A stretch of DNA of 64,000 nucleotides, from NCBI GenBank assembly GCA_947259885.1, contig CAMYNW010000001.1, positions 148,216 to 212,215 of the forward strand, written 5' to 3'. This document shows positions 5,274-43,230 of this stretch, piece after piece. Position 1 is the first letter of the stretch. Every line of letters starts with the position of its first letter. The notes under the pieces were generated by a model that did not search any database, had not been told where the DNA came from, and saw only the letters and a list, made by a program, of their open reading frames with translations. A program made the position numbers and the translations under genes. Source of the stretch: an uncultured Gammaproteobacteria bacterium. GTDB taxonomy: Bacteria; Pseudomonadota; Gammaproteobacteria; Arenicellales; Poriferihabitantaceae.

Positions 5274-5852
5274 GATACTGCTGGCGACGAAGACGGTATA
5301 GGGGCGGAAGGGATATTGGATCATTCACAGCTGCTTACGGATCCTGAAGAGGCGGCGGACTTTGTTAGTAAGACTCATGTTGATGCACTGGCAATCGCTA
5401 TTGGCACGTCTCACGGTGCTTATAAGTTTACTCGTCCGCCCACCGGGGATATTCTGGCAATAGATAGAATTAAGGAAATTCATGCGCGAATTCCGAGCAC
5501 CCATCTGGTAATGCATGGCTCCTCATCGGTGCCCCAGGATTGGCTGGCAACCATTATTGAATATGGTGGTGATATGGGGGAAACCTATGGGGTTTCATTA
5601 GAGGAAATCGTCGAGGGAATAAAAAATGGGGTTCGTAAAGTTAATATCGATACGGATCTACGAATGGCTTCTACTGGAGCGATTAGAAGGCATTTGGCTC
5701 AGAATCCGTCCGATTTCGATCCTCGAAAATACCTGAAAGCTGCCACTGAGGCGATGAAACAAATATGTATTGAACGTTATCAGGCTTTTGGTACAGAGGG
5801 TAATGCAGCAAAAATTAACGCGTTGAATCTGGAGCAGATGACGGAGCGGTAA
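5274..5852 (+). pseudogene. fba: 5'-truncated class II fructose-bisphosphate aldolase (C-terminal half only)
   Basis: The translation ([32 protein letters not shown]...GTSHGAYKF...LVMHGSS...[11 protein letters not shown]...) matches roughly the last 185 residues of about 354-aa Calvin/FbaA-type class II aldolases as I recall them. Homology begins within a few codons of the pgk stop. Only 44 bp separate pgk from the TTG at 5316, so there is no coding room for the N-terminal half. Confidence 0.8.
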
Positions 5853-17604: not shown

Positions 17605-19290
17605 TTACAGCAATGCCGAAGTTAGAAGTATTCCTGCCAGCATTATCGCAACCCATAACACCATTCCGCCACTGGGCCAGGTTCGTGCCAGGATTCCGTG
17701 GGGCCCATGGTGTCGATATAATCGTTTTATAAACCTCTCAATACGCTGATGAATGGCATGTTCAATTCGAATGTGGGTGTTGGAGGTTTTGACGGTGAAT
17801 TCTTTGGCGAAAATGTGCAGGAAGCGGCGGTAAAACCAATCAAAATCAAGACTGATGGTTAGCGTACGTTTCATCAATGGCAGCATTACGAAGAAAGCAA
17901 AGCCCGCAAATAACAGCAACTGAAACTGTGTCACAAGATGTGAGGCGGTGTAAGGCTGATACTCTACCGGATAGGGCAGCAGCCGATACAGCGGGCCCGG
18001 AAACAGGCCAATAGCAATACAGAGAAATGAAAACCCCCACATGCTGAACCGCATATTGCCGGGAGGGTCTGGTGGGCGCTGTCCTGAGTCTTTCTGGAAG
18101 AAAACGAACCACGGAAATTTAATTCCCGCATGCAGAAACACGCCTGCAGATGCCGCAATTAACAAAAACCAGACAGCCACCATCCCTTGCGAGGCTGCCG
18201 CAGCCGTTTCCAAAGACTTTGTCACAAATCCTGAAGTGAATGGAAATGAGGATATCGCCAGGGCGCCGATAATTCCATTGATTGCGGTTTGTGGCATGCT
18301 TTGAAATAAACCGCCCAGGTCGGTACATTTCCTTTTCCCTGTCATCATAAGCACGCTTCCCGCCGACATCAGTAATAGTGCTTTATATATGATATGTGCA
18401 AAGGCATGAGCAGCTGCGCCATTTAGCGCGAGCTCGGTTCCGATACCAATTGCGCAGACCATGAAGCCAACCTGATTGACGATGCTGTATGCCAGAATTC
18501 TGCGCATATCGTTTTCGAGCAACGCATAGATAATTCCATAAAACACCATATACAATCCGATGTAGATCAGTATCGTGGCACCCGGAAAACCAACCAGCAA
18601 AGCATATACCGCTGTTTTGGTGGTGAAAGCGGAGAGAAACACCATGCCGCTCGGACTGGCTTCAGGATATGCGTCAGCGATCCAGGCAGATAAAGGTGGT
18701 GCCCCTGCATTCACTAGAAAGCCAACCAGGATCAATATGCTTGCGAGATTATCTGGTTGCATAGCGGTGAAGTCGGTGGACCCCGTGGTATGCACATGGA
18801 GAATGATGCCGGCCATCAGGACCACGCCTCCGAGCAGATGAATCATTAGATAACGAAAGCTGGCTCGATAGGCAGACTGGCTGCCCGCGGCCCAGAGTAC
18901 CATGGTTGATCCGAGGGCCATTATTTCCCAGAAAATGAATAGCGAAATCAGGTCACCGCAGAAGGTCACACCGATTGCAGAACCGGCATATACGTAAGCA
19001 GCAGTTAGCTCGAGTATTTTGGCTTGACCCATTGCATAGATACCACCTGCAAAAGTCATGATGCAAAAGATGGAAGCGAACAGGCGTCCTGTCGGCGTTG
19101 AGTTAACAGGACTCAACTGATAATCGAGAAAGCTTAGTACGAGGGTATAATCGTTGGGTATCCACCAAACCAAGACCAATGTCATCACTGGCAGCAGGAC
19201 GATGAGTGCTTGCTGAATCTTACCCTTTAAAAAGGGCAGGGCTATTGCGCCAAGCACTAATATAAGCCCAGGTGGAAAGTTGAATTCCAT
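17605..19290 (-). CDS. Mrp/NuoL-M-N-type proton-conducting antiporter subunit (third D-like subunit) with an extended C-terminus
   Basis: 561 aa with the typical antiporter-like core (IFWEIMALGS..., multiple TMs). About 85 extra C-terminal residues consist of a charged amphipathic stretch (FYRRFLHIFAKEFTVKTSNTHIRIEHAIHQRIERFIKRLYRHH) followed by one final TM. Confidence 0.85.
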   Translation of the reverse strand: MEFNFPPGLILVLGAIALPFLKGKIQQALIVLLPVMTLVLVWWIPNDYTLVLSFLDYQLSPVNSTPTGRLFASIFCIMTFAGGIYAMGQAKILELTAAYVYAGSAIGVTFCGDLISLFIFWEIMALGSTMVLWAAGSQSAYRASFRYLMIHLLGGVVLMAGIILHVHTTGSTDFTAMQPDNLASILILVGFLVNAGAPPLSAWIADAYPEASPSGMVFLSAFTTKTAVYALLVGFPGATILIYIGLYMVFYGIIYALLENDMRRILAYSIVNQVGFMVCAIGIGTELALNGAAAHAFAHIIYKALLLMSAGSVLMMTGKRKCTDLGGLFQSMPQTAINGIIGALAISSFPFTSGFVTKSLETAAAASQGMVAVWFLLIAASAGVFLHAGIKFPWFVFFQKDSGQRPPDPPGNMRFSMWGFSFLCIAIGLFPGPLYRLLPYPVEYQPYTASHLVTQFQLLLFAGFAFFVMLPLMKRTLTISLDFDWFYRRFLHIFAKEFTVKTSNTHIRIEHAIHQRIERFIKRLYRHHGPHGILARTWPSGGMVLWVAIMLAGILLTSALL

Positions 19291-19353
19291 TATTGGATGC
19301 GATCCGTGTCGGGAATTGCAGGCTGCCGATGGCTATCATACGGTCGACAGTAT

Positions 19354-19398
19354 CTAGTCATCATACAGCTAGTCATCGCACAGCTATTCATCGTAGTA
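19354..19398. repeat. 15-nt tandem repeat: two good copies plus one degenerate copy
   Basis: The copies are CTAGTCATCATACAG, CTAGTCATCGCACAG and CTATTCATCGTAGTA. On the minus strand each copy encodes x-x-D-(D/E)-stop, and the third copy is the actual 3' end of the 88-aa ORF. Confidence 0.6.
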
Positions 19399-19650
19399 CG
19401 AATCCTTTCGTTTGAGGAAGATGCCAAGTATTTTTGCGGCTATTACCATAGCGGCACAGGATAGAAACCCATACCATGCGGTAAAGCCGAAGGTGGCATC
19501 AACTAACACGCCGTTTTCTTGAAAATGTGGATGATGGTGCAGAACAAATTCTGGCACCAGTGCAATAACAAGGATGAATACCTGGATCATCCAGAGTTTA
19601 GGCAGACTGCTGGAACGATAGAACCAGTGTTTATCTTGATCGCTGATCAT
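19384..19650 (-). CDS. Small two-TM membrane protein embedded in the Mrp-like cluster
   Basis: 88 aa. Its start overlaps the stop of the upstream D subunit (ATGA), suggesting translational coupling. It has two hydrophobic helices and I recognise no family. Confidence 0.55.
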   Translation of the reverse strand: MISDQDKHWFYRSSSLPKLWMIQVFILVIALVPEFVLHHHPHFQENGVLVDATFGFTAWYGFLSCAAMVIAAKILGIFLKRKDSYYDE

Positions 19651-21104
19651 GTGGAAATCTGCTGGATGAGTTCAAACGGTATCCCAGGAAAAAAGAAGAG
19701 TAAAACGGTCAAGCCTGCTGTCATGCAAAGTGCGGTAACCACGGGCCACGGAGCTTCTCCATATGTGAGCATTGCTTCAGAAGATTCCCGCTTGAACCAG
19801 GCCGCGTATATCACGGGTATAAAATAGGAAGCGTTCAGGAGCGTGGAGGCGATAATAACCGCAACAGCGGCTAATTGCTGCGCCTGGAATGCGCCCATTA
19901 ACAGGTACCATTTAGATATGAATCCTGCAGTTGGCGGTATGCCAATCATAGACAAGGCGCCAATAGAAAATGCTGTCATGGTGTAGGGCATGCGTCGTCC
20001 GATCCCATCCAACTGGCTTACTTCCGTTTTCTTGCAGCTTGTATAAATTGAGCCGGCAGCAAAAAACAACGTGATCTTGCCAAATGCATGCGCAATGATG
20101 TGCAATGCCGCGCCGGTGATCGAAAGTGGGGCCAGAAGGACTGCGCCCAGCACCACATAAGCTAACTGGCCGATGGTCGAATAGGCCAGCCGTTTCTTTA
20201 AGTTGTCTTGTCTCAATGCGATAAGCGACGCTGCAATAAGTGTAAAGCAGGCGATCCATATCAGCCAGTCTGCACCGGGCGCTTGCTTGATCAGGTCAAG
20301 GCCAAATATATATACCACTACTTTCACCACACTAAAAACCCCTGCCTTAACAACTGCAACGGCATGCAATAAAGCACTAACCGGGGTAGGAGCGACCATG
20401 GCAGCGGGCAACCATCTGTGTATCGGCATTAAAGCGGCTTTTCCGATTCCAAATAGAAAGAGCAGCGCCAACAGAGTTATGGCTCCGCCTTCAATATGTC
20501 CAGTGAGTATTCCGCCGGGTATGAAATTATTGGTACCGGCCAATGTCCAGGTCCAGACAATTGCTGGCAGCAGCAGACCAATTGATGTGAACAGAAGTAT
20601 CCCGAGATATGTGCGACCCCCCAGCATTGCCATTTGATTGCCTTTGTGAGCGACCAGAGGAAAGGTAGATAGAGTCAATACTTCATAAAAAACAAAAAGG
20701 GTTACCAGATTGCCAGCAAATGCGACTCCCATTGCAGCCGCAATGGCAACTGCGAAAAAGATGTAAAAACGCGTTTGATGTGACTCTTCATTGCCGCGCA
20801 TGTAACCGATAGAGTAAAGAGAATTAATTGGCCATAGAGTCGCAGCAACCGTGGCAAACAACATGCCAAGAGGTTCAATTTCGAACCGCAGTTCAAGGCC
20901 TGGTAACATTTCGAGCAGAATCAATTCTGGTCTGGCACCCGCCATCACAAGCGACAGAAGTTGAAGAACAACAAGTAACAACAGCATTGAAACTACCAGG
21001 GTGAAACCTTCTCGGAGATTAGGATTTTGTCGGCAGATAGAGACGCCGATAACCCCTGACAGCGGTAACGCCAGCGCAAGAAGAATAAGCGTTCCGCCGG
21101 TCAC
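19647..21104 (-). CDS. Mrp antiporter subunit D-like (NuoN/M family), copy 2
   Basis: 485 aa, polytopic, with proton-conducting membrane transporter motifs (FVFYEVLTLSTFPLV, WLPAAMVAPTPVSALLHA). Confidence 0.9.
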   Translation of the reverse strand: MTGGTLILLALALPLSGVIGVSICRQNPNLREGFTLVVSMLLLLVVLQLLSLVMAGARPELILLEMLPGLELRFEIEPLGMLFATVAATLWPINSLYSIGYMRGNEESHQTRFYIFFAVAIAAAMGVAFAGNLVTLFVFYEVLTLSTFPLVAHKGNQMAMLGGRTYLGILLFTSIGLLLPAIVWTWTLAGTNNFIPGGILTGHIEGGAITLLALLFLFGIGKAALMPIHRWLPAAMVAPTPVSALLHAVAVVKAGVFSVVKVVVYIFGLDLIKQAPGADWLIWIACFTLIAASLIALRQDNLKKRLAYSTIGQLAYVVLGAVLLAPLSITGAALHIIAHAFGKITLFFAAGSIYTSCKKTEVSQLDGIGRRMPYTMTAFSIGALSMIGIPPTAGFISKWYLLMGAFQAQQLAAVAVIIASTLLNASYFIPVIYAAWFKRESSEAMLTYGEAPWPVVTALCMTAGLTVLLFFFPGIPFELIQQIST

Positions 21105-21106
21105 TT

Positions 21107-22588
21107 TTATGGTGCTCCAAAAAGCGTAGTTGCAGCCGAGGAGGTGAACCCAGTAGTAAAGCTGGCGTCAATTCCAAAATAATAGTTGGCTAGCACTAAT
21201 ATCCATGTCGGCACTAGCAATGAAGCAGGTGCTTCTACTACTGTTACCGATTGATCAGGCCTCTGGTGCAGATAGGCTGCCTCCACGACTCGCCACACGT
21301 AGATCACTGCAATTAACGACCCTAATACAACAATAACGGCAATCGGCCACCAACCTTTTTCCAGTGCAGCCAGAATCAAATACCACTTTGAAATAAATCC
21401 TACTGTCAACGGGACACCAATTAGGCTCAATCCGCCAGCAACAAACGCGCCCATGGTCCATGGCATTTGCCGACCAATTCCATCCATGTTATCGATCAGA
21501 GTGTTACCAAGGCGATAACATACTGCGCCCATTGACAGGAACAATGCTCCCTTCATTAACGCATGGTTGAACAGGTGCAGTAATGTGGCCGTTAATCCAG
21601 TAGTGCTGACAAGGCCGATTCCCACCAGCATGTAGCCGATTTGGGCCACGGATGAATACGCCAGCATCCTTTTAATATCGCGCTGAAACACGGCTACAAT
21701 AGACGTGAACAGCACTGCTATTAATCCAACGGGAATCAATAACCAGTGGATATACATGGCCGAAAAGGAAAACTCATGGCCAAAAATAGTAAATAGATAA
21801 CGCACCATGACATAAACCGCCACTTTAGTCGCGGTGGCGGCAATAAATGCGGAAACGATAGATGGTGCGAAGGCATAAGCATTGGGCAGCCAAAGGTGGA
21901 GCGGAAACATCGCCAGTTTCAGTCCAATCCCAACAATTAGAAATCCGAATCCTGCCTGTAGCGCGCGAGACTCTCCAATTTCACCAATTCGGTCAGACAA
22001 ATCAGCCATGTTCAATGTGCCCGTTAACATGTACAAAATTCCCACACCGATAAGAATAAACGTGGCGCCGATAGTCCCCATAATCAGATACTGAAAAGAA
22101 GCGGTCAGTGCGCGTCGGTCTCGGCCAAGGCTGATCAGGGTGTAAGTGGAGAGGGAGGATATCTCTAACAGAACAAATAGATTGAACGCGTCTCCCGTAA
22201 TTGTAATGCCAAGAAGCCCGGCAAGACATAACAACATGCAGGTAAAAAAAAGTGGTTGTTGCTCAGGATCTACTTCATTTTGAACGCTACTCCAACTGTA
22301 TGGAAACATCACGGAAGCGATACCTGACACAATCAACAGTACCAGTACGTTAAGTTGGTCGACACGATACTCGATGCCCCACGGTGGGGCCCAGCCTCCG
22401 AATGCATATTGAATTTGTCCGCCGTCTGCAACCTGAAACGCAAGCCGCACCGCAATCCAAAGACAGAGCCAGCTAACTAAAGTTGATAATATCCAACCCA
22501 ATCGTCGGTAACGGCCCAAAAGAAAACAAAGCGGTGCTGCCATCAAAGGCACCACCACCTGCAGCGCCGGCAGGTGGTGTGAGATCAT
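21107..22588 (-). CDS. Mrp antiporter subunit D-like (NuoN/M family), copy 1
   Basis: 493 aa with FVLLEISSLSTYTLI, HLWLPNAYAFAPS and SKWYL motifs. It is tightly packed against its neighbours. Confidence 0.9.
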   Translation of the reverse strand: MISHHLPALQVVVPLMAAPLCFLLGRYRRLGWILSTLVSWLCLWIAVRLAFQVADGGQIQYAFGGWAPPWGIEYRVDQLNVLVLLIVSGIASVMFPYSWSSVQNEVDPEQQPLFFTCMLLCLAGLLGITITGDAFNLFVLLEISSLSTYTLISLGRDRRALTASFQYLIMGTIGATFILIGVGILYMLTGTLNMADLSDRIGEIGESRALQAGFGFLIVGIGLKLAMFPLHLWLPNAYAFAPSIVSAFIAATATKVAVYVMVRYLFTIFGHEFSFSAMYIHWLLIPVGLIAVLFTSIVAVFQRDIKRMLAYSSVAQIGYMLVGIGLVSTTGLTATLLHLFNHALMKGALFLSMGAVCYRLGNTLIDNMDGIGRQMPWTMGAFVAGGLSLIGVPLTVGFISKWYLILAALEKGWWPIAVIVVLGSLIAVIYVWRVVEAAYLHQRPDQSVTVVEAPASLLVPTWILVLANYYFGIDASFTTGFTSSAATTLFGAP

Positions 22589-22950
22589 TCTGCCTCATCC
22601 TCCCGCTGGCTGATTGCCAGGATGTCATCTTCTTCAATCGAGTGATAGGCTTCCTTGATACGAATGACCAGTGACAAGCCCAAAGCGGTAGTCGCGACAG
22701 CTACGACAATGGCGGTCAGAATCAGGACGTGGGGCAGGGGATTTGAATATAACTCAGAATTCACAGTGACAATCGGTGCGGTGCCGCCGATGACCTTTCC
22801 CATGCTGATGTACATAATGAACACCGATGTCTGGAATATATTCAGGCCGACGATTTTCTTTACAAGATTGCCACTGGCGATTACGGTATAGAAGCCTGCC
22901 ATCATTAGAATGATTACAATCCAGTAATTGAACAAACTGAAAGCGTTCAT
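22585..22950 (-). CDS. Mrp antiporter subunit C (NuoK-like)
   Basis: 121 aa with three TMs and the NPLPHVLILTAIVV motif typical of MnhC/MrpC. It overlaps the next gene by 4 nt. Confidence 0.85.
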   Translation of the reverse strand: MNAFSLFNYWIVIILMMAGFYTVIASGNLVKKIVGLNIFQTSVFIMYISMGKVIGGTAPIVTVNSELYSNPLPHVLILTAIVVAVATTALGLSLVIRIKEAYHSIEEDDILAISQREDEAE

Positions 22951-22952
22951 AC

Positions 22953-23915
22953 CTACTGCTTTTCTGTTTTGCCGGCGAAGGCGAAAAATATTGCGATCAT
23001 GACCGCGGCGACGGTAATTCCGACGCCAAGTTCAATTACCAATATCCCGAAGTGTTGCCCTTGTAATGGATCGTGGGAAAGAGCGTTGTAGTCCAGGTAA
23101 TTTCCTCCATTCAACATTGAAACGACACCAGTGCCGGCATATATCAAAACACCCAGTGCCGAGAGCCTCAGCACAACTTTCGGCGGAGCCAAAAGCATTG
23201 CATCGTCGAGCCCGAAATTTAACGTATAAAGTATGATTGCAGCTGCAAAAATGACCCCTGCCTGAAAGCCTCCTCCTGGTCCATAGTCGCCGTGGAATTG
23301 AACATAAAGGGCAAACAAGATGATGAAAGGTATCAGCAGAATTGCCATCACCTGGAGAACTGGATAGGGTCGCCTCGTTGCTGAGTTTTCTGGTGGGGGA
23401 GTGGATTGTTTTCTCTGTCGCCTGATTCCGATCAACGATAGTACGCCCATCAGTGCCGTGAACACGACGATCACCTCTCCCATAGTGTCATACCCGCGAT
23501 AACTTGCTAGAACTGAAGTGACCATATTGGGAATTCCGATTTCGCGAGGAGACTCTATTACATAGCGGTCGGCCACGTGGTGGTGCACCGGATCCGCAGG
23601 ATTGCCAAAACCGGGCATATCCAACGTGCCCCAGATTAATCCTGCTCCTGTCACAGTGACAACTGCCAGCGGCAGCAGAGGGTGATGGCGAGGCGGTTTT
23701 TCATGGCGCCCGGTTGTCACCAAAGTTGCCAGCATTAAAACTGTGGAGATACCGGCGCCTACCGCGGCTTCTGTAAAGGCAACATCTACTGCATCTAGAA
23801 CCACAAAAATCATTGCGCTCAACAAACTATATATACCAAACAGCATTACTACTGTGAACAGCCTGCGAAACCTGACTACGGCAATTGCGGTAATGGCCAG
23901 CATGGTGAGTAACAC
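22953..23915 (-). CDS. Fused MrpA-C-terminal-like (DUF4040/MbhD-like) plus MrpB subunit
   Basis: 320 aa. The N-terminal part (AVDVAFTEAAVGAGISTVL) resembles DUF4040. The middle NMVTSVLASYRGYDTMGEV and the later HGDYGPGGGFQAGV are MnhB/MrpB-type motifs. Confidence 0.8.
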   Translation of the reverse strand: MLLTMLAITAIAVVRFRRLFTVVMLFGIYSLLSAMIFVVLDAVDVAFTEAAVGAGISTVLMLATLVTTGRHEKPPRHHPLLPLAVVTVTGAGLIWGTLDMPGFGNPADPVHHHVADRYVIESPREIGIPNMVTSVLASYRGYDTMGEVIVVFTALMGVLSLIGIRRQRKQSTPPPENSATRRPYPVLQVMAILLIPFIILFALYVQFHGDYGPGGGFQAGVIFAAAIILYTLNFGLDDAMLLAPPKVVLRLSALGVLIYAGTGVVSMLNGGNYLDYNALSHDPLQGQHFGILVIELGVGITVAAVMIAIFFAFAGKTEKQ

Positions 23916-23932
23916 AACATTTACGAACAGTT

Positions 23933-24259
23933 CTATGACTGCACCTCGCTGCTTTGTTTATTGCCATGTGTCATTGCTCTCAGCCCAGCTCGATAGGCTG
24001 CCCTCACCAATGCATGGCTCGAAGTGGGACTGGTAATCCATAAAAGTGTCAGCACGATCAGAAGTTTAATGGTGACCAGACTCCAGCCCGCCTGAAAAAC
24101 CAATCCAAGTATGAAACATGCGGCACACAATGTATCGGCAATGCTCACCGCATGTACTCTTGCGTAAAAGTCAGGGAAAGTCATCAAACCCCAGGCGCCT
24201 GTGATTCCAAGCACTGAACCGGCCAGTAAAAAAATCCAGGTCAACAAATCTGCGACCAT
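23933..24259 (-). CDS. Mrp antiporter subunit G
   Basis: 108 aa with MnhG-like TFPDFYARVHA and three TMs. Confidence 0.8.
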   Translation of the reverse strand: MVADLLTWIFLLAGSVLGITGAWGLMTFPDFYARVHAVSIADTLCAACFILGLVFQAGWSLVTIKLLIVLTLLWITSPTSSHALVRAAYRAGLRAMTHGNKQSSEVQS

Positions 24260-24261
24260 TG

Positions 24262-24540
24262 TTATTGCTCCTCCACTTCGTCGTATTCCTCAATACGCTC
24301 GATAAATTTGAGGACTGCAATGACGCCGATAAAGTTAATCAAAGCATAGAAGATGGAAAGATCAAGGAAATCCGGTCTCTCAGTGAGAAAGCCGTACACC
24401 GCAATCAATAAAACTGTTTTGGTGCCAAACATATTTACCGCTAAAACCCGATCGTAGATCTTTGGGCCTGCTAAGGCTCGGATAAGTGCAAAAAGCATTA
24501 CAACCAGCAAGGCTACGACTGCAATACCGAGGCTCATCAT
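24262..24540 (-). CDS. Mrp antiporter subunit F
   Basis: 92 aa with MnhF-like RALAGPKIYDRVLAVN and three TMs. Confidence 0.8.
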   Translation of the reverse strand: MMSLGIAVVALLVVMLFALIRALAGPKIYDRVLAVNMFGTKTVLLIAVYGFLTERPDFLDLSIFYALINFIGVIAVLKFIERIEEYDEVEEQ

Positions 24541-25016
24541 TTCCTTTGCTCCAATTTGGAGACGCGTTGATTCATTTCTCCATCCATCAATTCCACTATT
24601 GCTTCTTCGACAATGGCGTGCACCAATACACCATCATCTTTAATATCAAAAGACACTGTTCCTGGTGTGAGGGTAATGGAATTGGCATATATGGTCTTTC
24701 CTAGCTTGGATTTTTGTGACATCGGAAGACGTTTAACGGTTGGACTGATCGGATAATGTCGCGGAAACCAGATATTTTTAACCACTGCAATATTTGCTTT
24801 GAATACTTCAATTAAGAGCCAATGCAGATAGGCAGGAAAGCGCAGAATCAGAGACCAATCCGAGTACAATCGATATTGGCGCCTGATTCTCCAGGAAATA
24901 TAGAGAGAAAATAAGGTCGATGCCAGACCCAGGAACAACAGAAGGCTGTTGCTCCAAAATCCGGATAAAAGCAGCCAGAAGCCGCTTAGCCCAATGCCAA
25001 GCAGAATTAGGTACAT
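24537..25016 (-). CDS. Mrp antiporter subunit E
   Basis: 159 aa with two N-terminal TMs and an MnhE-type ANSITLTPGT motif. It is the first gene of the minus-strand cluster. Confidence 0.8.
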   Translation of the reverse strand: MYLILLGIGLSGFWLLLSGFWSNSLLLFLGLASTLFSLYISWRIRRQYRLYSDWSLILRFPAYLHWLLIEVFKANIAVVKNIWFPRHYPISPTVKRLPMSQKSKLGKTIYANSITLTPGTVSFDIKDDGVLVHAIVEEAIVELMDGEMNQRVSKLEQRK

Positions 25017-25229
25017 CTCCTCAATGTGGTGCTGTAGTTAAGTTTATGTTTGGTATATTGTAAACCAGAATTATAGGAAACATAGCAATCCAATGTTACC
25101 AACCGCGATGGGATTTATAAAAGTTAATAATCTCCGGGTGTCCTATAATTTGTGCCGGGCACTTTACTAATTTAATGAAAAATTTAATATAGTCAAGATT
25201 AAACTTTTCATTTACAAAAGGTCTATCCT

Positions 25230-26186
25230 GTGATGGCAAGAAGATTAATTCAACTCCTGGTTCTGACTGTTGGATTTTCCTGGCAACTGGTGTATTGCTG
25301 GGCCGCTACTGGAGAAACCGATCTGAATGAAAGCATGCGACAAAACTACATCGAGTTTGTCGCGGCTGAGGCAGATGAGAGCAATCCTTTGCCATTTTTG
25401 CTTGAGTCGGTTAGCGACGCCAGTAATTCATGGGCGAGTATTCGATACTTTCTTGATTCTGTATCGCTCGATACCTTTATTGCGCGGCTCAAACAACCCC
25501 GTGAATGGTGCGAATTCATTCCTCTGCACCTCAATATTAAGGCTTGCAGCTATCAGGAGTTAGGAGACAGGAGTATTTTAAGTTTTTATGTTGGCATCAA
25601 AGGCTATTTAACTCCTGACAAGGCGCATCTTTTGCAGTTAGACTTTCGGTCGCAAACGAAGGGAGATGTGTTCGTTGTAAATTTGTTTGCTAAAGATGGT
25701 CCGCTCGACAGTTCTGATATCGATTTTGATATACGGGCTATCAGCGTTGAGCACGACAACCGACAGGGAATATACCTTGAGTTTGATTTATCGAGTGTGC
25801 CTGGTTTGGCATCGAGTTTGGCCAGTCTTTACCTCGCTACGATTGCCCGCAATAAGATTGGGTTCTCTATAGAAGGAAAGACCTGGTCTGGAAAACCTAA
25901 GTTCGTGGGCGGAAAACGTGGTGCAACTGAACGTAACCTTGTGCGCTATCTGCTCTCTATCGAAACATATTTCGCCACCCTGGACATGCCCTCTGAGAAA
26001 CAATTTATACAGCGTATCGAGCACTGGTATGATTCCACCGATAGGTTTCGAGCCCAGTTGTATGAGCTGGAGAAAGAAGAATACATATCAAACAAGTATC
26101 GAGAACGGAAGAATCAGGAAATCCTGCAACAGGCGATTTTTAATAAGGTGGAGCCCGTTTATGTGCCGGTAGACCGCTTAAAATAA
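25230..26186 (+). CDS. Hypothetical exported protein
   Basis: 318 aa, GTG start, N-terminal signal-like segment (LLVLTVGFSWQLVYCWAATG). I recognise no family motif. The C-terminus is coiled and charged. Confidence 0.55.
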   Translation: MMARRLIQLLVLTVGFSWQLVYCWAATGETDLNESMRQNYIEFVAAEADESNPLPFLLESVSDASNSWASIRYFLDSVSLDTFIARLKQPREWCEFIPLHLNIKACSYQELGDRSILSFYVGIKGYLTPDKAHLLQLDFRSQTKGDVFVVNLFAKDGPLDSSDIDFDIRAISVEHDNRQGIYLEFDLSSVPGLASSLASLYLATIARNKIGFSIEGKTWSGKPKFVGGKRGATERNLVRYLLSIETYFATLDMPSEKQFIQRIEHWYDSTDRFRAQLYELEKEEYISNKYRERKNQEILQQAIFNKVEPVYVPVDRLK

Positions 26187-31545: not shown

Positions 31546-33633
31546 TTACTCCTCCACTTTATTGGATGCGGGCACAGCTATGTGTTTGAAAGCTGTTTTA
31601 TGGCCAGGCGAGGCTCGAAATCCTCTGACCAGTTTTCTGAATCGATTTAGCGCACCTTTCTCTGGGGCATCGACTATTGCATAACGCAGCGCTATATATT
31701 CCTGAGTGATCAGCTGTACTTCTCTCTGTAGTCCGGGCAGACGTGCTGACACTCGATGTGCGAAATCCACCGGTCCTTCATTGTGGCGTCTAGTCAACCC
31801 GCGTCGTTTCAGTTTGCAGCAGAAATTAAGATAAATGCGGTCAACTGGATCCGGGTGCACCTGATCTCGCCTGAACAGGATAAAGCTGAACAGGGATAGC
31901 AGACCAAGTGCGCTGATAAAAGCGCCGACCGACAGCAACTTTGCGTTAATCTGTCCAAGGCCCATAGAGCGCAACAATTGCCGCTGGCGTGACCCATCAA
32001 ACGCAACGAACCATCTATTCCATTTGGCCTTGATGGCATCTTTCAACCATACCAGTTCGATACCAATTCGACGTAATCCCTGAAAATCGCGTGCAGAAAA
32101 TAACACGACGCGGTCGGTGTTGAGGCTGGTGTCGAAGTCTATTGGATACTCGACTCTTTCGGGTGCAATGGAGGCAGTGGGATCAACTCTTGTCCATCCA
32201 ATTTCTGAATCCCAGATTTCTGTCCAGGCGTGCGCATCAGATTGGCGAACAACGATCTGATTGCTTCTCGGATTATGTTCGCCGCCGAGATAACCTACCA
32301 CGACTCTTGCCGGAATGCCGGCACTGCGCATGATGGTGGCGAAGCTACTGGCATAATGGCCACAAAAACCGCGTCGGCTTTCGAAGAGGAATTCATCGAC
32401 CGGCGCGTCACTTTCTAGTAACGGTGGTTGCAGTGTGTAACTAAAATCGTTCTGGTTAAAATGCTCAAGCATGCGCTGCGCAATATCACTTGGAGAGTTT
32501 GTGCCGCGAGTAATTTCCTGAACTAAACCGTCTAGTCTCGGTGTGAATACAGTTCCCCCTAAATTTAAAGACTGCAATCTGGCGATATCAGATAATGGCT
32601 CTTTTATTGAAGTGCCATTTGACACAATTTCATATCTGAAAGGGCGTTCAATTGGGCGAGATACGTATAGGTGGTGGTCCGCGTCTAATCGCGCATCACG
32701 CGGAATCGATATAGGATAATCAAGTGAATACAGCCAGTTCTGATTGGTCGGCTCGAGTTCAATTTCGTAACGATAAACCTGGTTCTGCAAATCAGTAACT
32801 GCGGGTGTAACACCAAGGAATGGTGCGAACTTGCCGCGAGTCCATTGTCTGCCATCCGTTACCCACAGCACGCCACCACGCCAGTAGCGTTCGGATGGCG
32901 GTGGAATCTGCTGGCCGAGAAAAGTTGCGGTAAAGGCTACTTCTCTGGATTGAATCAGATTGCTGATAGTTCCCATATTTAAGGTATCACTCAGACCAGT
33001 AACCGCGGTATCAGCCTCGGTCTCAAAAAGAAAAACCGATCCGGATAGCCTTGGGAATAGATAAAAAAGTATGAAAACAAAAGGCAGAGCCTGGATCAGC
33101 ATTTTCCCAACCAGCTTGAGGTCGGAAAAGAGATATCGACCGGGATCCGCGTGTTCAATTTGTGTCATCAACCAGGTAAGCGCTATGACCAGTCCAAGCA
33201 AAGGAGCTGCCCAGGAGATTCCGTCGACATATAAAAAGTGTGTGGCGATCATGAAAAAACCCAGTAGCAGGACGATCCGTATATCACGCAGGGTACTGAT
33301 CTCTACGCATTTCAATCCCATCAGCACGAGCAGGAACGCTACTCCTGGATCTCTACCAATAGGCGCCCCATACAACCAGGCTGAAACCGAGAAGCCAATT
33401 ATTGCAAACAAGTAAATGATCCAACGATTTCTGGGAAGCCTGTTCCCGCGCGTTGCTACCAGTCTCCATATCGCAAGCGCAAGGAAGATGGCAATTACCT
33501 CAAAACGCAGATGGTTGATGTGAGGAAGAACGGCTAGTGTCAAAAAGCCAATGGCGAGCGCCAGCAATCTGGTTCCACTCGGCGTCTTTTCGACATACTG
33601 TGGTTCGGTTTTTGCTCGCAATCGATTAATCAC
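31546..33633 (-). CDS. Transglutaminase TgpA-like membrane protein (DUF3488 N-terminal TM domain plus transglutaminase core)
   Basis: 695 aa with multiple N-terminal TMs. The transglutaminase Cys-His-Asp core is present: RRGFCGHYASSFATIMRSAGIPARVV, DAHAWTEIW, WTRVDPT. Confidence 0.9.
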   Translation of the reverse strand: MINRLRAKTEPQYVEKTPSGTRLLALAIGFLTLAVLPHINHLRFEVIAIFLALAIWRLVATRGNRLPRNRWIIYLFAIIGFSVSAWLYGAPIGRDPGVAFLLVLMGLKCVEISTLRDIRIVLLLGFFMIATHFLYVDGISWAAPLLGLVIALTWLMTQIEHADPGRYLFSDLKLVGKMLIQALPFVFILFYLFPRLSGSVFLFETEADTAVTGLSDTLNMGTISNLIQSREVAFTATFLGQQIPPPSERYWRGGVLWVTDGRQWTRGKFAPFLGVTPAVTDLQNQVYRYEIELEPTNQNWLYSLDYPISIPRDARLDADHHLYVSRPIERPFRYEIVSNGTSIKEPLSDIARLQSLNLGGTVFTPRLDGLVQEITRGTNSPSDIAQRMLEHFNQNDFSYTLQPPLLESDAPVDEFLFESRRGFCGHYASSFATIMRSAGIPARVVVGYLGGEHNPRSNQIVVRQSDAHAWTEIWDSEIGWTRVDPTASIAPERVEYPIDFDTSLNTDRVVLFSARDFQGLRRIGIELVWLKDAIKAKWNRWFVAFDGSRQRQLLRSMGLGQINAKLLSVGAFISALGLLSLFSFILFRRDQVHPDPVDRIYLNFCCKLKRRGLTRRHNEGPVDFAHRVSARLPGLQREVQLITQEYIALRYAIVDAPEKGALNRFRKLVRGFRASPGHKTAFKHIAVPASNKVEE

Positions 33634-33647
33634 AATTGAAGGTCGTG

Positions 33648-34643
33648 TTAGGGATTGTTGAACAAAGCAAGCGCTTTGAGGCAGCGGTGTCTATGTGATT
33701 CACCGGCGGCAGGTTCGATCCTACGACCTGGTATTTCAAGTCCGTAGTCGATGTCCAATCTGTCCAGGTCGAGCACCGCTCTTGAAAGATGGGACAGTTT
33801 TTGTTCCTGGTCCTCCCCTTCGGTTTCCTGCCATCGAAGCCAGACTTGTTCGCCTTTTGCGGCGCTGAAATTCTTAAGCCACCATCCTTTTCCTCTTGCC
33901 ACGACTTTCCAGTCTACATGCATCACACTGTCTCCTGACTGGTAGGCTTTATGACCCACGAAGTCGTCGTTTCCAGTTTCCGCGACGTTGCTGGCATCCA
34001 CATCACTTGACCAGTAATCCAGGCCACTGCCCACTTCAGCAGGTTTTGGATAAACTAAGCAGTTGTGATCAGCCTCAAAATAGGCCCAGGCGCGAAATAA
34101 TCCAAGCGGGAAACTTGTTTCAAGTACAACCCGGTCCACCGGCATAAATCCTCTTTTACTGGTGGGTTTGGAAACATTTAATATGGCATCGGATTCCGGA
34201 TCCAGATCCACACGCGCGGCATCGGGCGACTGATGCCCATAGATGAACGCACCAATACCAGCACGAGGTGCATCGTAAGGATTGCGCAGCCGAAATGGAT
34301 AGCTTGCGTCTGCTCCACAAAAAACCGCTTCCGCATTGCTTGTCGTGAGTTCAATACCAACCAGGTTTTTCCACGTTTGGAACAGCGCAGCCATACCTAG
34401 TCCGGTGAGAAGGAAAGTCAGCAAGAAGCCAGGGTTACTGCCATAGTTGTTCGAGCCAAATAGCATTGCAAACAGCATAGCCCCAAACAAAATCCCAAAG
34501 CGGGTAGGCAGAATATAAACTTGGCGAGGTTTAACTCGGATTACGCCTGACGGGTCCGGTGCCGCAGTGCGCATCAGGCTTTGAAACCATCGCCACAAAC
34601 GATCGCTGGGTGGTCTGTTTCTGAATTTAAGGAATGGTGACAT
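33648..34643 (-). CDS. DUF58 domain protein
   Basis: 331 aa with two TMs after the N-terminus. It holds the conserved position between the MoxR ATPase and TgpA. The DDFVGHKAYQSGD segment is typical of DUF58. Confidence 0.75.
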   Translation of the reverse strand: MSPFLKFRNRPPSDRLWRWFQSLMRTAAPDPSGVIRVKPRQVYILPTRFGILFGAMLFAMLFGSNNYGSNPGFLLTFLLTGLGMAALFQTWKNLVGIELTTSNAEAVFCGADASYPFRLRNPYDAPRAGIGAFIYGHQSPDAARVDLDPESDAILNVSKPTSKRGFMPVDRVVLETSFPLGLFRAWAYFEADHNCLVYPKPAEVGSGLDYWSSDVDASNVAETGNDDFVGHKAYQSGDSVMHVDWKVVARGKGWWLKNFSAAKGEQVWLRWQETEGEDQEQKLSHLSRAVLDLDRLDIDYGLEIPGRRIEPAAGESHRHRCLKALALFNNP

Positions 34644-35538
34644 TTTCCAGAATCAGCCGGTCGAGGTTGGTAGTCGGTTCTCTTGCCGATAGGTGGTGGA
34701 CGCTATAAGGAATAACAGTCTGCAGATCCTCCGGCAGCACATGGTTACGCCCGTGCACGACCGCCCAGGCCTTGGTTGCCTCAAGTAATGACATGCCTGC
34801 CCGTGGTGAATATCCGCTTCGAAAGGCAGGATCGTGGCGCGTGTAAGCGATAATTGCTTGAAGATAATCAAGAAGCTTGTTAGAGACTGTGACCCTGGCT
34901 ACACTGGTTTGCGCCAATGCCAGCGACTCGGTGTTAAATACCGGTCGCAAAGAGCTCAGTTTTTGCCTGGGGTCAGGGTTCTTCAGCATATCCCGTTCAG
35001 CTTCCCGATCTGGATACCCCAAGCTGATTCCTAGCATAAAGCGATCAAGCTGGGAGTCAGGCAATGAGAACGTGCCAGTCTGTTCTGTGGGATTGCGGGT
35101 CGCGATAACAAAAAACGGACGGGGTAGTGGACGGGTTTTTCTGTCAATGGTGACTTGCCGCTCTTCCATAGCCTCTAGGAGTGCGCTCTGGCATTTTGGT
35201 GTCGCGCGATTGATCTCGTCAGCCAATACCAGCTGTGTAAAAATCGGACCCGGATGGAAGGTAAAGGCAGTCGTTTCCTGATCAAATATTGTGACACCTG
35301 TAATATCCGCGGGTAGCAGGTCACTGGTAAACTGAATGCGCTTGAAGTTGAGGCCGAACAGACGGGCGATCACGTTGGCCAAGGTTGTTTTACCAACCCC
35401 TGGTTTATCGGTAATCAGCAGGTGTCCGTTGGCGAGTAGGGTGGATATGGCGAGTCGAATGACGCGATCCTTTCCTAGTATGACTTGACTAGCTTGTGCG
35501 ATGAGCGCGTCAATGGTCGATTGAATTTCGTTGTTCAA
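34627..35538 (-). CDS. MoxR-family AAA+ ATPase
   Basis: 303 aa with Walker A DKPGVGKTTLA, Walker B LADEINRATPK, and the MoxR-like C-terminus. It overlaps the DUF58 gene by 17 nt. Confidence 0.92.
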   Translation of the reverse strand: MNNEIQSTIDALIAQASQVILGKDRVIRLAISTLLANGHLLITDKPGVGKTTLANVIARLFGLNFKRIQFTSDLLPADITGVTIFDQETTAFTFHPGPIFTQLVLADEINRATPKCQSALLEAMEERQVTIDRKTRPLPRPFFVIATRNPTEQTGTFSLPDSQLDRFMLGISLGYPDREAERDMLKNPDPRQKLSSLRPVFNTESLALAQTSVARVTVSNKLLDYLQAIIAYTRHDPAFRSGYSPRAGMSLLEATKAWAVVHGRNHVLPEDLQTVIPYSVHHLSAREPTTNLDRLILENVTIP

Positions 35539-36936: not shown

Positions 36937-39366
36937 ATGAAAACACATGCGCAGGTGGTGGTGATTGGTGGTGGATTGGTCGGCTGCAGCATCCTTTATC
37001 ATCTCACCAAACTGGGATGGTCCGATGTGGTGTTGCTGGAACGTAACGAGCTGACTTCAGGTTCGACTTGGCATGCTGCAGCCAATACCCACGGTCTGCA
37101 CGATAACAATAATATTTCCAGACTGCAGTATTACACTATGAAGGTGTACGAGGAGTTGGAGGCAGAAACCGGGCAATCCTGTGGATTACACCATCCCGGA
37201 TCAATCTACCTGGCCTGCACCAATGACCGTGTGCATCAACTGCGCATTCAGGCCGCAAAGGCCCATGCATTCGACGCGGATTTTTACGAGATTTCTCTAG
37301 AGGAGGCAAAGGAGCTGCATCCTCTGCTTAATCTGGATAATGTCAAGTGTGCGATGTTCGAACCAATGGCGGGCCATGTAGATCCTTCTGGTGTCACCCA
37401 TGCCTATGCCAACGGTGCGCGCAAGAACGGTGCTGAGATACATCGATTTACCCCCGTAATTGAAACCACTCCCCGACCTGATGGGACCTGGAATGTGGTC
37501 ACAGAAAAAGGCACGGTGCACGCGCAGCATGTTGTAAATGCCGCGGGCCTATGGGGCAGGGAAGTGGGTCGTCTGGCTGGCCTCGAGCTTCCGCTTATGA
37601 CGATGGAGCATCAGTATTTCGTTACCGAGGAAATTCCCGAGATTGCAGCGCTTGACCGAGAGCTGCCCGCGGTGGCGGACCGAGACATGGAGTACTACCT
37701 GCGTCAGGAAGGTAAAGGCCTTCTGGTGGGCGCATATGAAAAAGATGGTCGATTCTGGGCCGAGGATGGCACACCGCTGGATTTCGGGCATGACCTCCTT
37801 CCAGAAGACCTCGATCGAATAACTGACAACGTTATGCGGGCCTGTGACCGAATCCCTGCGCTGGCCGAAGCCGGGGTTAAGCAGGTAATAAACGGCCCCA
37901 TGATATGGTCGCCGGACTCATCGGCCCTTCTCGGTCCTGCACGGGGGCTGAAGAATTACTGGTGCTGCAATGGCATCATACCCGGGTTTAGCCAGAGTGC
38001 CGGGCTTGGCTTGACCCTGGCTCAATGGATAGTGGAAGGTGAGCCGGAACTGGATATGTTCCCTTGGGATGTGACACGCTTCGGCGACTGGGCGACCAAG
38101 GACTATACGAAAGCCAGAGCCCTGGATACTTACAGCACTCGCTTCAGTATTCACTTTCCTAATGAAGAACGGGAGGCTGGTCGGCCTCTTGGTAAACGTC
38201 CTGTTTACGCTATGCAGCGGCAGATGGGGGCGGTGTTTGGGTTCTCATTTGGATATGAGCATCCGCACTGGTATGCGCCCGAAGGGGTTCCCCAGGAAGA
38301 CGAGTTTACCTTTGAGCGCCCACGTTGGTTCGATGTGATGGGCCAGGAAGCTCAAACCCTGCGTACTTCCGTTGGCGTAGTTGATACGTCGAACTTCGCC
38401 AAGTACTTAATTTCAGGGCCTAATGCGAGGGAGTGGCTGGACAAGATAATTGCTAACTATGTTCCAAAAGAGAATGGACGTACCTGCCTGACCCCATTGC
38501 TCGGGTTACGCGGTGGCCTTGCGGGGGATTTTACCGTCGCCCGCCTTGAGGACAATAAATTGTTCATGATTGGGTCGGGTATCGCCGAGGATTACCACCG
38601 AAGGTTATTTGATCAATATTTACCCACCGAGGGTGTAAGTTTTGAATCGCGGACCCAGGCCATGTGCGGCTTTAATGTTGCAGGTCCCAATGCGCGTAAG
38701 CTGATGGAGAGCATGACCGCTATGCCGTGGGGAAATGAAGACCTTCGGTTTATGTGTAATCGTGTAATCAACTTCGATGGCTACGATGTGATTGTTATCC
38801 GGGTATCGTTTACTGGTGATCTTGGGTACGAGATGTACGTAGCCGAAGAAAATCAATTACAACTTTACCAATCCATTTTTGAACATGGCAATAATCTGGG
38901 TATCCGACCTGTGGGATCGCGTGCCCTTGGCTCCATGCGTATTGAAAAAGGCTACGGTAGCTGGAGTCGCGAGTATTCGCCCGAATGGTATCCCACCGAG
39001 TCACGAATGGATTTTCTGGTTAAGACCGACAAGCCGGAATTCCATGGCCGTGAAGCCTATATGAAGATCAAAGATCAACCTCCCCGTCAGCTAATGTGTA
39101 ATTTCCAGATTGATACTAAACCAGGTAAAGATGGCGCGGATGCGTGGGGCGGAGAAGCCATATTCCGTGGTGGCAAATACGTGGGTCGCATCACATCAGG
39201 ATCTTATAGCTTTACGTTTAATACCTCGGTTGCAATTGGCTACGTCGATGCTGACCAGGCAGACCCGGGAGAGGATTTTGAAGTCGCTGTACTAGGTATC
39301 CCTACTAAGGCCAGATTGCTCGAAAAGCCATTGTTCGATCCGAATGGAGAAAAACTAAGAGCCTAA
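36937..39366 (+). CDS. FAD-dependent oxidoreductase fused to a GcvT-like folate-binding domain (dimethylglycine/sarcosine dehydrogenase family)
   Basis: 809 aa with the N-terminal VVVIGGGLVGCSILYHL FAD motif and a C-terminal aminomethyltransferase-like half (VSFTGDLGYEMYV, MRIEKGY). Confidence 0.88.
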   Translation: MKTHAQVVVIGGGLVGCSILYHLTKLGWSDVVLLERNELTSGSTWHAAANTHGLHDNNNISRLQYYTMKVYEELEAETGQSCGLHHPGSIYLACTNDRVHQLRIQAAKAHAFDADFYEISLEEAKELHPLLNLDNVKCAMFEPMAGHVDPSGVTHAYANGARKNGAEIHRFTPVIETTPRPDGTWNVVTEKGTVHAQHVVNAAGLWGREVGRLAGLELPLMTMEHQYFVTEEIPEIAALDRELPAVADRDMEYYLRQEGKGLLVGAYEKDGRFWAEDGTPLDFGHDLLPEDLDRITDNVMRACDRIPALAEAGVKQVINGPMIWSPDSSALLGPARGLKNYWCCNGIIPGFSQSAGLGLTLAQWIVEGEPELDMFPWDVTRFGDWATKDYTKARALDTYSTRFSIHFPNEEREAGRPLGKRPVYAMQRQMGAVFGFSFGYEHPHWYAPEGVPQEDEFTFERPRWFDVMGQEAQTLRTSVGVVDTSNFAKYLISGPNAREWLDKIIANYVPKENGRTCLTPLLGLRGGLAGDFTVARLEDNKLFMIGSGIAEDYHRRLFDQYLPTEGVSFESRTQAMCGFNVAGPNARKLMESMTAMPWGNEDLRFMCNRVINFDGYDVIVIRVSFTGDLGYEMYVAEENQLQLYQSIFEHGNNLGIRPVGSRALGSMRIEKGYGSWSREYSPEWYPTESRMDFLVKTDKPEFHGREAYMKIKDQPPRQLMCNFQIDTKPGKDGADAWGGEAIFRGGKYVGRITSGSYSFTFNTSVAIGYVDADQADPGEDFEVAVLGIPTKARLLEKPLFDPNGEKLRA

Positions 39367-43217: not shown

Positions 43218-43230
43218 TGTTGTGGGCTGT

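Follow-up and report, generated by a model that had tools for sequence, protein, structure and literature searches.

A probable stand-alone cation/proton antiporter of Mrp group 3 with three antiporter-like subunits and an unnamed small subunit in an uncultured gammaproteobacterium

Among the Mrp cation/proton antiporters, group 3 is defined by the absence of mrpA, an irregular gene order and, sometimes, multiple mrpD genes (PMC8415708, PMC5703873; Swartz 2005, Ito 2017, Haja 2021). The mrpFGBCDDAE cluster of Microbacterium TS-1 is one example, the mrp locus of Nitrospira alkalitolerans carries two extra NuoL/M-like genes after mrpD (PMC7784846), and the stand-alone mrpEFGBB'CD operon of P. 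furiosus has been studied by deletion (PMC8415708). In cyanobacteria, the Aphanothece Ah-Mrp (mrpCD1D2EFGAB) complements E. coli and performs Na+/H+ antiport, as cited in PMC5703873, and the mnh operon of Synechocystis (slr2006-2013, with ndhD5/ndhD6) is a member of the CcmR regulon described as 'poorly understood' (PMC4390856, PMC3401165). Here, we describe nine genes located at positions 17605-25016 of a 64,000-nucleotide stretch of DNA from an uncultured Gammaproteobacteria bacterium (contig CAMYNW010000001.1), the whole of which is referred to as the window. These genes form one operon, which belongs to the already recognised group 3 of Mrp systems. Judging from gene content and conservation, they would probably encode a stand-alone multisubunit cation/proton antiporter of the CPA3/Mrp superfamily, driven by the proton-motive force and equipped with an extra proton module.

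All nine genes are co-oriented on the minus strand and succeed one another in the order E-F-G-A'B-C-D1-D2-S-D3. Their products were assigned to families by Pfam and NCBIfam scans of the open reading frames (ORFs), and the features are the following:

24537-25016, minus strand: E, MrpE/MbhA-like subunit, 159 amino acids (aa); PF01899, E = 6e-27.
24262-24540, minus strand: F, MrpF/MbhB-like subunit, 92 aa; PF04066, E = 8e-19.
23933-24259, minus strand: G, MrpG/MbhC-like subunit, 108 aa; PF03334, E = 4e-23, and TIGR01300 at 67 bits for a cut-off of 63.
22953-23915, minus strand: A'/B, fusion of the MrpA C-terminal domain (MbhD + MbhE, NuoJ-like) with MrpB, 320 aa; PF13244 + PF20501 + PF04039 (MnhB), and NF009161 at 427 bits for a cut-off of 272.
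22585-22950, minus strand: C, MrpC/NuoK-like subunit, 121 aa; PF00420, and NF005624 at 128 bits for a cut-off of 95.
21107-22588, minus strand: D1, antiporter-like subunit of the MrpD/MbhH/MbsH type, 493 aa; PF00361, E = 1e-63.
19647-21104, minus strand: D2, antiporter-like subunit with MrpA-N/NuoL/ND5-type signatures, made of the core of 14 transmembrane helices (TM) only, 485 aa; PF00361 and a weak PF00662.
19384-19650, minus strand: S, two-helix membrane protein of an unnamed family, 88 aa.
19291-19383, minus strand: lineage-specific spacer of 93 nucleotides (nt) between S and D3.
17605-19290, minus strand: D3, divergent terminal antiporter-like subunit with a TM15/lateral-helix/TM16 tail, 561 aa; PF00361, and NF009310 at 671 bits for a cut-off of 564.
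25017-25229, minus strand: upstream intergenic region, shared with a divergent 318-aa gene, with a sigma-70-like site at 25099-25070 (GTAACA-18-TATAAT).

Neighbouring genes overlap by 4 nt at three junctions (E/F, C/D1 and D2/S) and are separated by 2-17 nt at the others, except for the 93 nt between S and D3. A preliminary description of the window had reported a tight minus-strand cluster with such overlaps, encoding MrpE, F, G, an A'/B fusion, C, two D proteins of about 490 aa, an 88-aa protein and a 561-aa D protein; every one of these ORFs was found in place, and the family scans agree with the assignments, S alone having no match. It had also proposed a survey of the gene order across genomes. 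With one genome per species, at least 588 loci with a D3 relative were found, 80 of which were retained, 61 of them with enough upstream sequence for the order to be checked; the order E-F-G-A'B-C-D1-D2-S-D3 is identical in 59 of these 61 informative loci. Strong family matches together with such a conserved synteny exclude chance. The two exceptions, L021 and L026 (CP070733.1 and CP070738.1), are 'chromosomes' of metagenome-assembled genomes (MAGs) with joins of 100 N every few kb, and the operon looks incomplete there because of these contig joins.

As regards expression signals, the sigma-70-like site matches at 10 of 12 positions and lies about 55 nt upstream of the E start, but the total number of such sites in the region does not exceed the shuffled expectation, so this promoter-like match is weak evidence. 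The guanine-cytosine content is even along the cluster and, being flat, gives no sign of horizontal transfer. The 93-nt spacer contains the short direct repeat GATGACTAG twice. It has no significant RNA fold (z = -1.0), and neither an RNA structure nor an Rfam family was found there or elsewhere in the window. Among the related loci, it is shared only with a 93%-identical relative, where it measures 81 nt; in most relatives S and D3 abut or overlap.

In terms of classification, the six families PF04039, PF00420, PF00361, PF01899, PF04066 and PF03334 that characterise Mrp/CPA3 systems (TC 2.A.63) occur in one co-oriented cluster, without the single MrpA of about 800 aa that combines a NuoL-like N-domain, a lateral helix and a NuoJ-like C-domain. 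Both gene order and subunit sizes depart from those of group 1/2 operons (mrpA(B)CDEFG, MrpA of ~800-960 aa). They agree with group 3, as the cluster has three PF00361 proteins, no full MrpA and its own gene order. Since the published definitions of group 3 cover the absence of mrpA and the occasional presence of multiple mrpD genes, the operon does not constitute a new category, and NCBIfam models already name it. Respiratory complexes of the MBH and MBS(Mbx) type encode, along with their Mrp-like genes, an MbhM/NuoH-like anchor and peripheral subunits resembling NiFe hydrogenase or Nuo B/C/D/I, and neither was found among the 49 ORFs scanned in the window. The DAB and NDH-1MS systems associate a PF00361 subunit with DabA (DUF2309) or CupA/ChpX, and the window scans revealed no such partner; DabB-type models are also absent from the best 25 NCBIfam matches of D1-D3. 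The view of the cluster as a three-pump Mrp variant, put forward in the preliminary description, is borne out by the three PF00361 subunits accompanying the full set of Mrp families, and the Mbh/Mbx-like order noted there is real, E-F-G-A'-B-C-D being that of MbhA-H. To date, no functional or structural study of this nine-gene type was found in the open-access literature, so that the possibility raised at the outset, namely that the cluster type had already been characterised, did not materialise.

The fate of MrpA deserves particular attention. None of the ORFs in the cluster combines a length of some 800 aa with the complete set of MrpA domains, and domain assignment shows that none of the D-like genes is a conventional MrpA, a possibility that the preliminary description had itself raised against its own reading. 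Its statement that a canonical, full-length MrpA is lacking therefore holds, the functions appearing to be split over A'/B, D2 and D3. By homology, MrpA is split rather than absent because its C-terminal domain is fused to MrpB, the TM8 signature of ND5/MrpA is carried by D2, and a tail with a lateral helix (HL) is carried by D3. Even counting this split MrpA, the operon has one antiporter-like subunit more than a classical Mrp.

The three large subunits were distinguished by hidden Markov model (HMM) scans, sequence searches and structural comparison, a classification suggested beforehand, and came out as an MrpD-type D1, an MrpA/NuoL-like D2 and a D3 with an MrpA-like tail. In sequence searches against the PDB, the best solved relatives of D1 are MbsH (235 bits), the B. 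pseudofirmus MrpD (201) and MbhH (198), so that its homology clearly points to the MrpD/MbhH/MbsH type. Little or no variation is seen at its TM5 Glu, TM7 Lys, TM8 Lys and TM12 Lys, conservation being counted here and below over aligned family members from related loci (about 52-79 sequences per subunit). D1 and D2 both retain the whole canonical set, namely TM5 Glu, TM7 Lys/His, TM8 Lys, TM11 Lys and TM12 Lys. As for D2, its PDB scores place it about equally far from L-type and D-type proteins (NdhF 131, MbsH 126, NuoL 121 and MrpA 118), the NCBIfam ranking puts HyfD, MrpA and NuoL models above those of MrpD and NuoM/N, and a weak match to the NuoL N-terminus (PF00662) is detected. Its TM8 motif, SALLHAVAVVKAG, contains His247, which is invariant in 68 of 68 relatives and matches His248 of the B. 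pseudofirmus MrpA, the 'histidine switch' (PMC9568556) that belongs to the MrpA/ND5 TM8 signature.

D3 has diverged from all solved structures, its best PDB sequence match being MbsH' at 94.5 bits, and its three best Foldseek matches are MrpA chains, aligned over some 620 columns. Sixteen helices are predicted, corresponding to the 14-TM core, TM15 (451-477) and the terminal TM16 (538-561), with an amphipathic segment at 481-528 whose hydrophobic moment reaches 1.9 and which would form the HL. As the AlphaFold2 (AF2) model of this tail has a predicted local distance difference test score (pLDDT) below 50, the core alone being usable, the lateral helix was read from secondary structure and hydropathy. 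Within the core, E122, K225, K303 and K358 are retained, and the position of the TM7 Lys (K217 in MbsH', K219 in B. pseudofirmus MrpD) is occupied by N194, which is invariant in 79 of 79 sequences; an Asn is also found there in rhizobial and haloarchaeal D3 homologues. From the point of view of annotation, one label, 'subunit D', covers three proteins that are not interchangeable, and S would be part of the complex as well.

In the numbering of A. flavithermus, the Mrp residues shown to be essential or proposed as such are D29/R30 and D35 of MrpF, E706, D792 and E796 of the MrpA C-domain (MrpA-C), H37/H40 of MrpC, E137/K219 of MrpD, P86 of MrpG, and H131/P114 of MrpE. Most of them are kept in the present operon, the departures being MrpF D35, replaced by Asn in 59 of 60 family members, and MrpC H37/H40, replaced by Thr and Phe. 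P118 and H133 of MrpE, the equivalents of P114 and H131, are conserved in 59/59 and 58/59 sequences, respectively, and the MrpF entry pair D30/R31 in 60/60; D30, R34, H36 and P78 of MrpG are conserved as well. In the fused Dietzia MrpA, the region that aligns with the A'/B fusion is 608-911, which comprises MrpA-C plus MrpB. The MrpA-C carboxylates of the fusion, E49 (in AFTEAAVG), D143 and E147 (in YRGYDTMGEV), are invariant in 52/52; in about one quarter of the related loci, A' and B are separate genes.

The two departures concern residues held to be of functional importance. MrpF reads DRVLAVN instead of the canonical DRxxAxD, Asn36 standing for a mid-membrane Asp (D35 in A. flavithermus, D38 in B. 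pseudofirmus, D36 in MbsB) that is present in all five solved structures and has been called invariably conserved. In A. flavithermus, the D35L substitution inactivates the antiporter (PMC7419157), and an MrpF D-to-N change was tolerated in the B. subtilis Mrp according to the same article. The Asn would therefore be compatible with activity, yet it marks a distinct subfamily. In MrpC, TM2 reads IFQTSVF where LLSHGAH is found in A. flavithermus and B. pseudofirmus, LIDSGIH in MbhG and IMETGVN in MbsG. No ionisable residue is left in this helix, since Gln (Q40, invariant in 60/60) occupies the Glu/Asp position of MbsG/MbhG, and Thr and Phe those of the two A. flavithermus histidines. In addition, the TM3 motif of MrpC is LPH instead of the otherwise universal LPQ.

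Unlike the other eight products, S could not be assigned by homology: it has no Pfam, NCBIfam or PDB relative, and a Pfam search with 31 family members gave no consistent match at E values up to 5. S is nevertheless a real gene: of the 80 related loci, 74 have it conserved in its place between D2 and D3. The family shares the motifs HWLxR, FGFxAWYGFxxC and AKxLGxFLKRxDxYYD, AF2 predicts a two-helix hairpin (H13-38 and H52-86), and an exhaustive profile search of a library of 1.84 billion proteins gathered 792 representative clusters. S thus represents a widespread, unnamed family; ten divergent relatives are called 'hypothetical protein' throughout, and no mention of S was found in the open-access literature. 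The best 150 of the 792 representatives range from 59 to 237 aa and include no D2-S or S-D3 fusion. The idea that S is a detached piece of another subunit, for instance TM15/16 of a NuoL-like protein, was rejected: hhalign comparisons of the S family with the D3 C-terminus, D1, D2, D3, C, A'B, E, F and G gave probabilities of at most 0.6%, the likeness between its HW(L/F)xR motif and the DWFYR of D3 is limited to a 6-residue match, and no S-like region is present in the long-tailed haloarchaeal D2. A separate observation is that, in one Gemmatimonadaceae MAG (L027), S and D3 form a single in-frame ORF of 707 aa, the sole such fusion among the 80 loci, which could be real or due to a sequencing error at the usually overlapping stop/start codons. 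The name 'fumarate reductase subunit D' given by the Joint Genome Institute to two S homologues (P0123 and P0134) has no Pfam or profile support and was discarded.

The D2, S and D3 genes are also found together in another context. A tblastn search of D3 against plasmids matched megaplasmids of Sinorhizobium, Rhizobium and Ensifer at ~48% identity, and a locus of S. meliloti (CP050559.1, 8276-11743) is the counterpart of positions 17605-21104 of the window. Its gene order is nuoJ-nuoK, a 487-aa 'antiporter subunit D family' protein, an 84-aa hypothetical protein, a 586-aa 'Na+/H+ antiporter subunit D', nuoM-nuoN and nuoA to nuoG, and no nuoL is present in this annotated locus. The three middle genes are homologous to D2 (49%), S (E = 1.5e-15 with an HMM of the S profile) and D3 (49%). 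In the literature, this rhizobial assembly is known as 'green complex I', in which 'two MrpD-like subunits replace NuoL', and Ca. Manganitrophaceae contain related MrpD1/MrpD2 pairs that have an HL (PMC9040806, PMC7415380). Since homologous triplets exist in the S. meliloti nuo operon and in the Mrp operon, D2-S-D3 can be regarded as a portable module of three genes, shared by a stand-alone Mrp and a variant of complex I. It therefore provides a direct sequence link between Mrp and the rhizobial/Manganitrophus complex I variants with extra pumps, and S would be a small subunit of the latter that the descriptions consulted do not mention. Green complex I and, probably, Complex_I_3 of Manganitrophaceae have the D2-S-D3 module in common with the present operon, and the S. 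meliloti D3 likewise has an Asn at the TM7 position and an HL tail. However, the module replaces NuoL there in a redox-driven pump with NuoA-N, the S. meliloti cluster is devoid of MrpE, F, G and B genes, and the D3 tail following DWFYR counts 104 aa in the complex I version against 78-86 aa in the stand-alone family, being some 25 residues longer. The present operon is thus not a green complex I, as its module follows mrpC and D1, without nuo genes.

A second relative lies on the Haloterrigena salifodinae plasmid pHTS171 (2107-10695), where the order is E-F-G-DUF4040-MnhB-C-D-D-D, followed downstream by integrase genes. Its D proteins pair one-to-one with D1 (38%), D2 (44%) and D3 (33%), F reads DRLLAVN, C reads NLFQTAIF, and the third D has an Asn at the position of the TM7 Lys. 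It differs in that no S is detectable, A' and B are separate genes, MrpC keeps LPQ, and the D proteins are longer, with acidic insertions.

The distribution of the operon is unremarkable, bacteria from marine, saline and soil habitats carrying it very commonly. More than 8000 homologues of D3 were scored, and among the matches listed those nearest to it come from Gammaproteobacteria (Thiothrix, the Solemya symbiont, Sedimenticolaceae). Carriers belong to Gamma-, Alpha- and Betaproteobacteria and to Gemmatimonadota, and those in culture include Pseudoalteromonas, Thalassotalea, Leucothrix, Thiorhodococcus, Teredinibacter and Bradyrhizobium. Possible partner genes were searched for in the window and in 10-kb flanks of the related loci. 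The preliminary description had seen no adjacent hydrogenase or Nuo-type gene, and the same is true of the whole window, where no nuo, hydrogenase, NuoH-like, CupA/ChpX or DabA gene occurs among the 49 ORFs scanned; clustering of all flanking ORFs revealed no conserved neighbour, no family being found in more than 8 of the 80 loci. The neighbours in the window encode an FAD oxidoreductase, an MsbA-like ABC exporter, a secreted hypothetical protein, an AstE-like hydrolase and a YgiQ-type radical SAM protein, and the remainder of the 64 kb consists of housekeeping genes and genes of betaine/choline-type catabolism.

Taken together, these data are best accounted for by a stand-alone antiporter, whose architecture can be drawn by homology to the solved Mrp, MBH and MBS structures. 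E, G and F would constitute the cation-entry end, and the A'/B fusion and C a NuoJ/NuoK-like coupling module, adjoined by the MrpD-type D1. D2, with its MrpA-N/ND5-type core and TM8 histidine switch, would come next, and D3 would occupy the distal position, its amphipathic lateral helix and terminal TM anchor running back along the neighbouring subunits as in NuoL, MrpA and MbsH'. Such a helix clamping the row of subunits agrees with the rule that the length of the HL follows the number of antiporter-like subunits (PMC8165549). S would be a small hairpin subunit tied to the D2/D3 pair. The membrane potential would drive protons inwards through three antiporter-like channels instead of the usual two. 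These protons would be relayed along the central Lys/Glu axis to a coupling site made of the D1 TM5 Glu, A'/B E49 and TM2/TM3 of C, where a cytoplasmic cation, most likely Na+, would be expelled to the outside. The extra module would thereby raise the H+ to cation ratio. This proposal is supported by the presence of all seven Mrp subunit families with strong scores and by the invariance of the proton-path residues in D1 and D2. By homology, the transported ion is probably Na+, and a Na+-coupled function has been published for other group 3 systems (Ah-Mrp, cited in PMC5703873; the P. furiosus deletion study, PMC8415708). Several points nevertheless weigh against the proposal. The MrpF Asp, the ionisable residues of MrpC TM2 and the TM7 Lys of D3 are replaced family-wide, so that cation identity and coupling may differ from those of a classical Mrp. 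With a pLDDT below 50 for the D3 tail, the arrangement of the subunits is inferred rather than modelled. Moreover, D2-S-D3 works in a rhizobial redox complex, and association with a partner is therefore not impossible. Finally, no experiment on the nine-gene type was found in the open-access literature.

The MrpF and MrpC substitutions would permit another specificity or coupling, and the operon might have the same architecture without being a classical Na+/H+ exchanger, either by carrying another cation (K+, Ca2+) or by working with a markedly different stoichiometry or direction, as in Na+-gradient-driven proton export for pH homeostasis. This would be consistent with the location of the family-wide replacements along the putative route of Na+ and at the coupling site (MrpF Asn in 59/60, MrpC Q40 in 60/60, LPH), with an MrpC TM2 devoid of any His, Asp or Glu, and with Mrp systems on record that have K+ or Ca2+ specificity or operate in reverse (PMC5703873, PMC8415708). 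The changes in F and in TM2 of C would also be an old, selected trait, because they are shared with the haloarchaeal three-D cluster. However, the entry Asp/Arg pair is preserved, as are the remaining essential carboxylates, the MrpF Asn was tolerated in the B. subtilis Mrp as cited in PMC7419157, Gln and Thr are still able to ligate Na+, and nothing speaks positively for any other ion, which makes a departure of this kind unlikely, though still worth keeping in mind.

The remaining explanations involve a partner. The nine proteins could be the membrane arm of a respiratory or redox complex whose peripheral module is encoded elsewhere, as MBH, MBS and green complex I might suggest: the order E-F-G-A'-B-C-D is that of MbhA-H, D1 and D3 find their best matches in MbsH and MbsH', and D2-S-D3 is integral to the Sinorhizobium nuo operon. 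Nevertheless, every such complex needs a NuoH/MbhM-type anchor for docking, which the operon does not contain, and neither a redox gene in the 64 kb nor a conserved neighbour in the 10-kb flanks of 80 loci of very different lineages was found; we therefore regard this reading as improbable. An energy-coupled CO2-hydration or inorganic-carbon system with a carbonic-anhydrase-like partner, in the manner of NDH-1MS or DabAB, is more improbable still. It is brought to mind by the cyanobacterial multi-D mnh operon (slr2006-slr2013), which belongs to the low-CO2 CcmR/NdhR regulon (PMC4390856, PMC3401165), and by the many operon carriers that are autotrophic sulfur oxidisers, but no CupA/ChpX or DabA-like gene occurs in the window or in the conserved neighbourhoods, many carriers are heterotrophic (Pseudoalteromonas, Colwellia, Teredinibacter, Bradyrhizobium), and the role proposed for the cyanobacterial operon is itself Na+ extrusion in support of SbtA/BicA.

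A bolder version of the stand-alone antiporter can also be considered, in which the operon would represent a distinct and so far undescribed Mrp subclass, combining the portable D2-S-D3 module, a rewired cation-coupling site and either a different ion or a markedly higher H+/cation stoichiometry. We hold this to be possible but, on balance, doubtful. If it were true, two proton channels with their own lateral helix would have been plugged both into an Mrp core and, in replacement of NuoL, into complex I; an MrpF Asn, an MrpC TM2 without ionisable residues but with a His gained in TM3, and an Asn in TM7 of D3 would define its residues; and the transported ion or the H+/cation ratio might differ from those of any characterised Mrp. 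In a broader perspective, there is still debate on how an ion or redox site is connected to a chain of proton channels. As a natural three-channel Mrp, this operon would offer a stand-alone system for measuring the effect of an added module on stoichiometry. It also provides natural substitutions of residues under debate, namely the mid-membrane Asp of MrpF, the histidines of MrpC and, in the distal subunit, the TM7 Lys. The cluster itself being common and of an already classified kind, its interest rests on the shared module, the unnamed subunit S and the family-wide residue changes.

Other features of the window were noted in passing. The divergent gene at 25230-26186 (plus strand) encodes the 318-aa protein, with a signal-peptide-like N-terminus and no Pfam match; it is probably unrelated to the operon, as its orthologue adjoins it in 3 of the 80 loci only. 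At 5316-5852 (plus strand), downstream of transketolase and phosphoglycerate kinase, a 178-aa ORF is similar to class II fructose-bisphosphate aldolase in the C-terminal half only, the match covering profile positions 147-276 of 277, and may be a truncated gene or a frameshift since there is no room for the N-terminal half. The region 36937-49713 looks like betaine, choline or dimethylglycine catabolism, with a DAO + GCV_T fusion (809 aa), a fused TRAP/TAXI transporter (DctM + DUF3394) accompanied by an NMT1_3 binding protein, as well as dehydrogenases, a GMC oxidoreductase and a protein resembling histidinol dehydrogenase. Finally, an apparent operon at 31546-35538 (minus strand) comprises a MoxR-type AAA ATPase, an unannotated 331-aa protein and a TgpA transglutaminase.

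Compared with the known systems, the operon shares with the other group 3 examples the lack of an intact mrpA, several mrpD-like genes, a separate MrpA-C/MrpB-type piece and a stand-alone organisation. The cyanobacterial order C-D-D-(D)-E-F-G-A'-B becomes E-F-G-A'B-C-D-D-D once circularly permuted, and slr2008 of Synechocystis, located between ndhD5 (slr2007) and ndhD6 (slr2009), recalls D2-S-D3 by its gene position. However, the cyanobacterial clusters start at a different gene, the number of their D genes varies between sources, and the Na+/H+ antiport recorded in E. coli belongs to the Aphanothece cluster, not to the present one. The P. furiosus Mrp, MBH (MbhA-I) and MBS/Mbx (MbsA-H') have the same succession of E, F, G, B-type pieces, C and D, and, as regards MBS and MBH, D1 scores best with MbsH, D3 with MbsH', which is also distal, and A' matches MbhD + MbhE. 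These archaeal systems differ in several respects: Mrp and MBH have a single antiporter-like subunit and MBS has two, S is missing, the MrpF position is an Asp, MrpC TM2 contains Asp, Glu or His, and MBH and MBS possess MbhM/NuoH-type and hydrogenase-type subunits that are absent here. With the group 1/2 Mrp complexes of A. flavithermus (6Z16), B. pseudofirmus (7QRU) and Dietzia (7D3U), the operon has in common the seven protein families, the Lys/Glu proton axis, the MrpA-C carboxylates, the MrpF DR motif, the MrpG Pro and a lateral helix on the distal antiporter-like subunit. In contrast to them, its MrpA appears split, with the C-terminal part fused to B and the N-terminal-type functions shared between D2 and D3, it has one extra antiporter-like subunit and S, and it shows an Asn in place of MrpF D35, an MrpC without the His residues and a D3 without the TM7 Lys.

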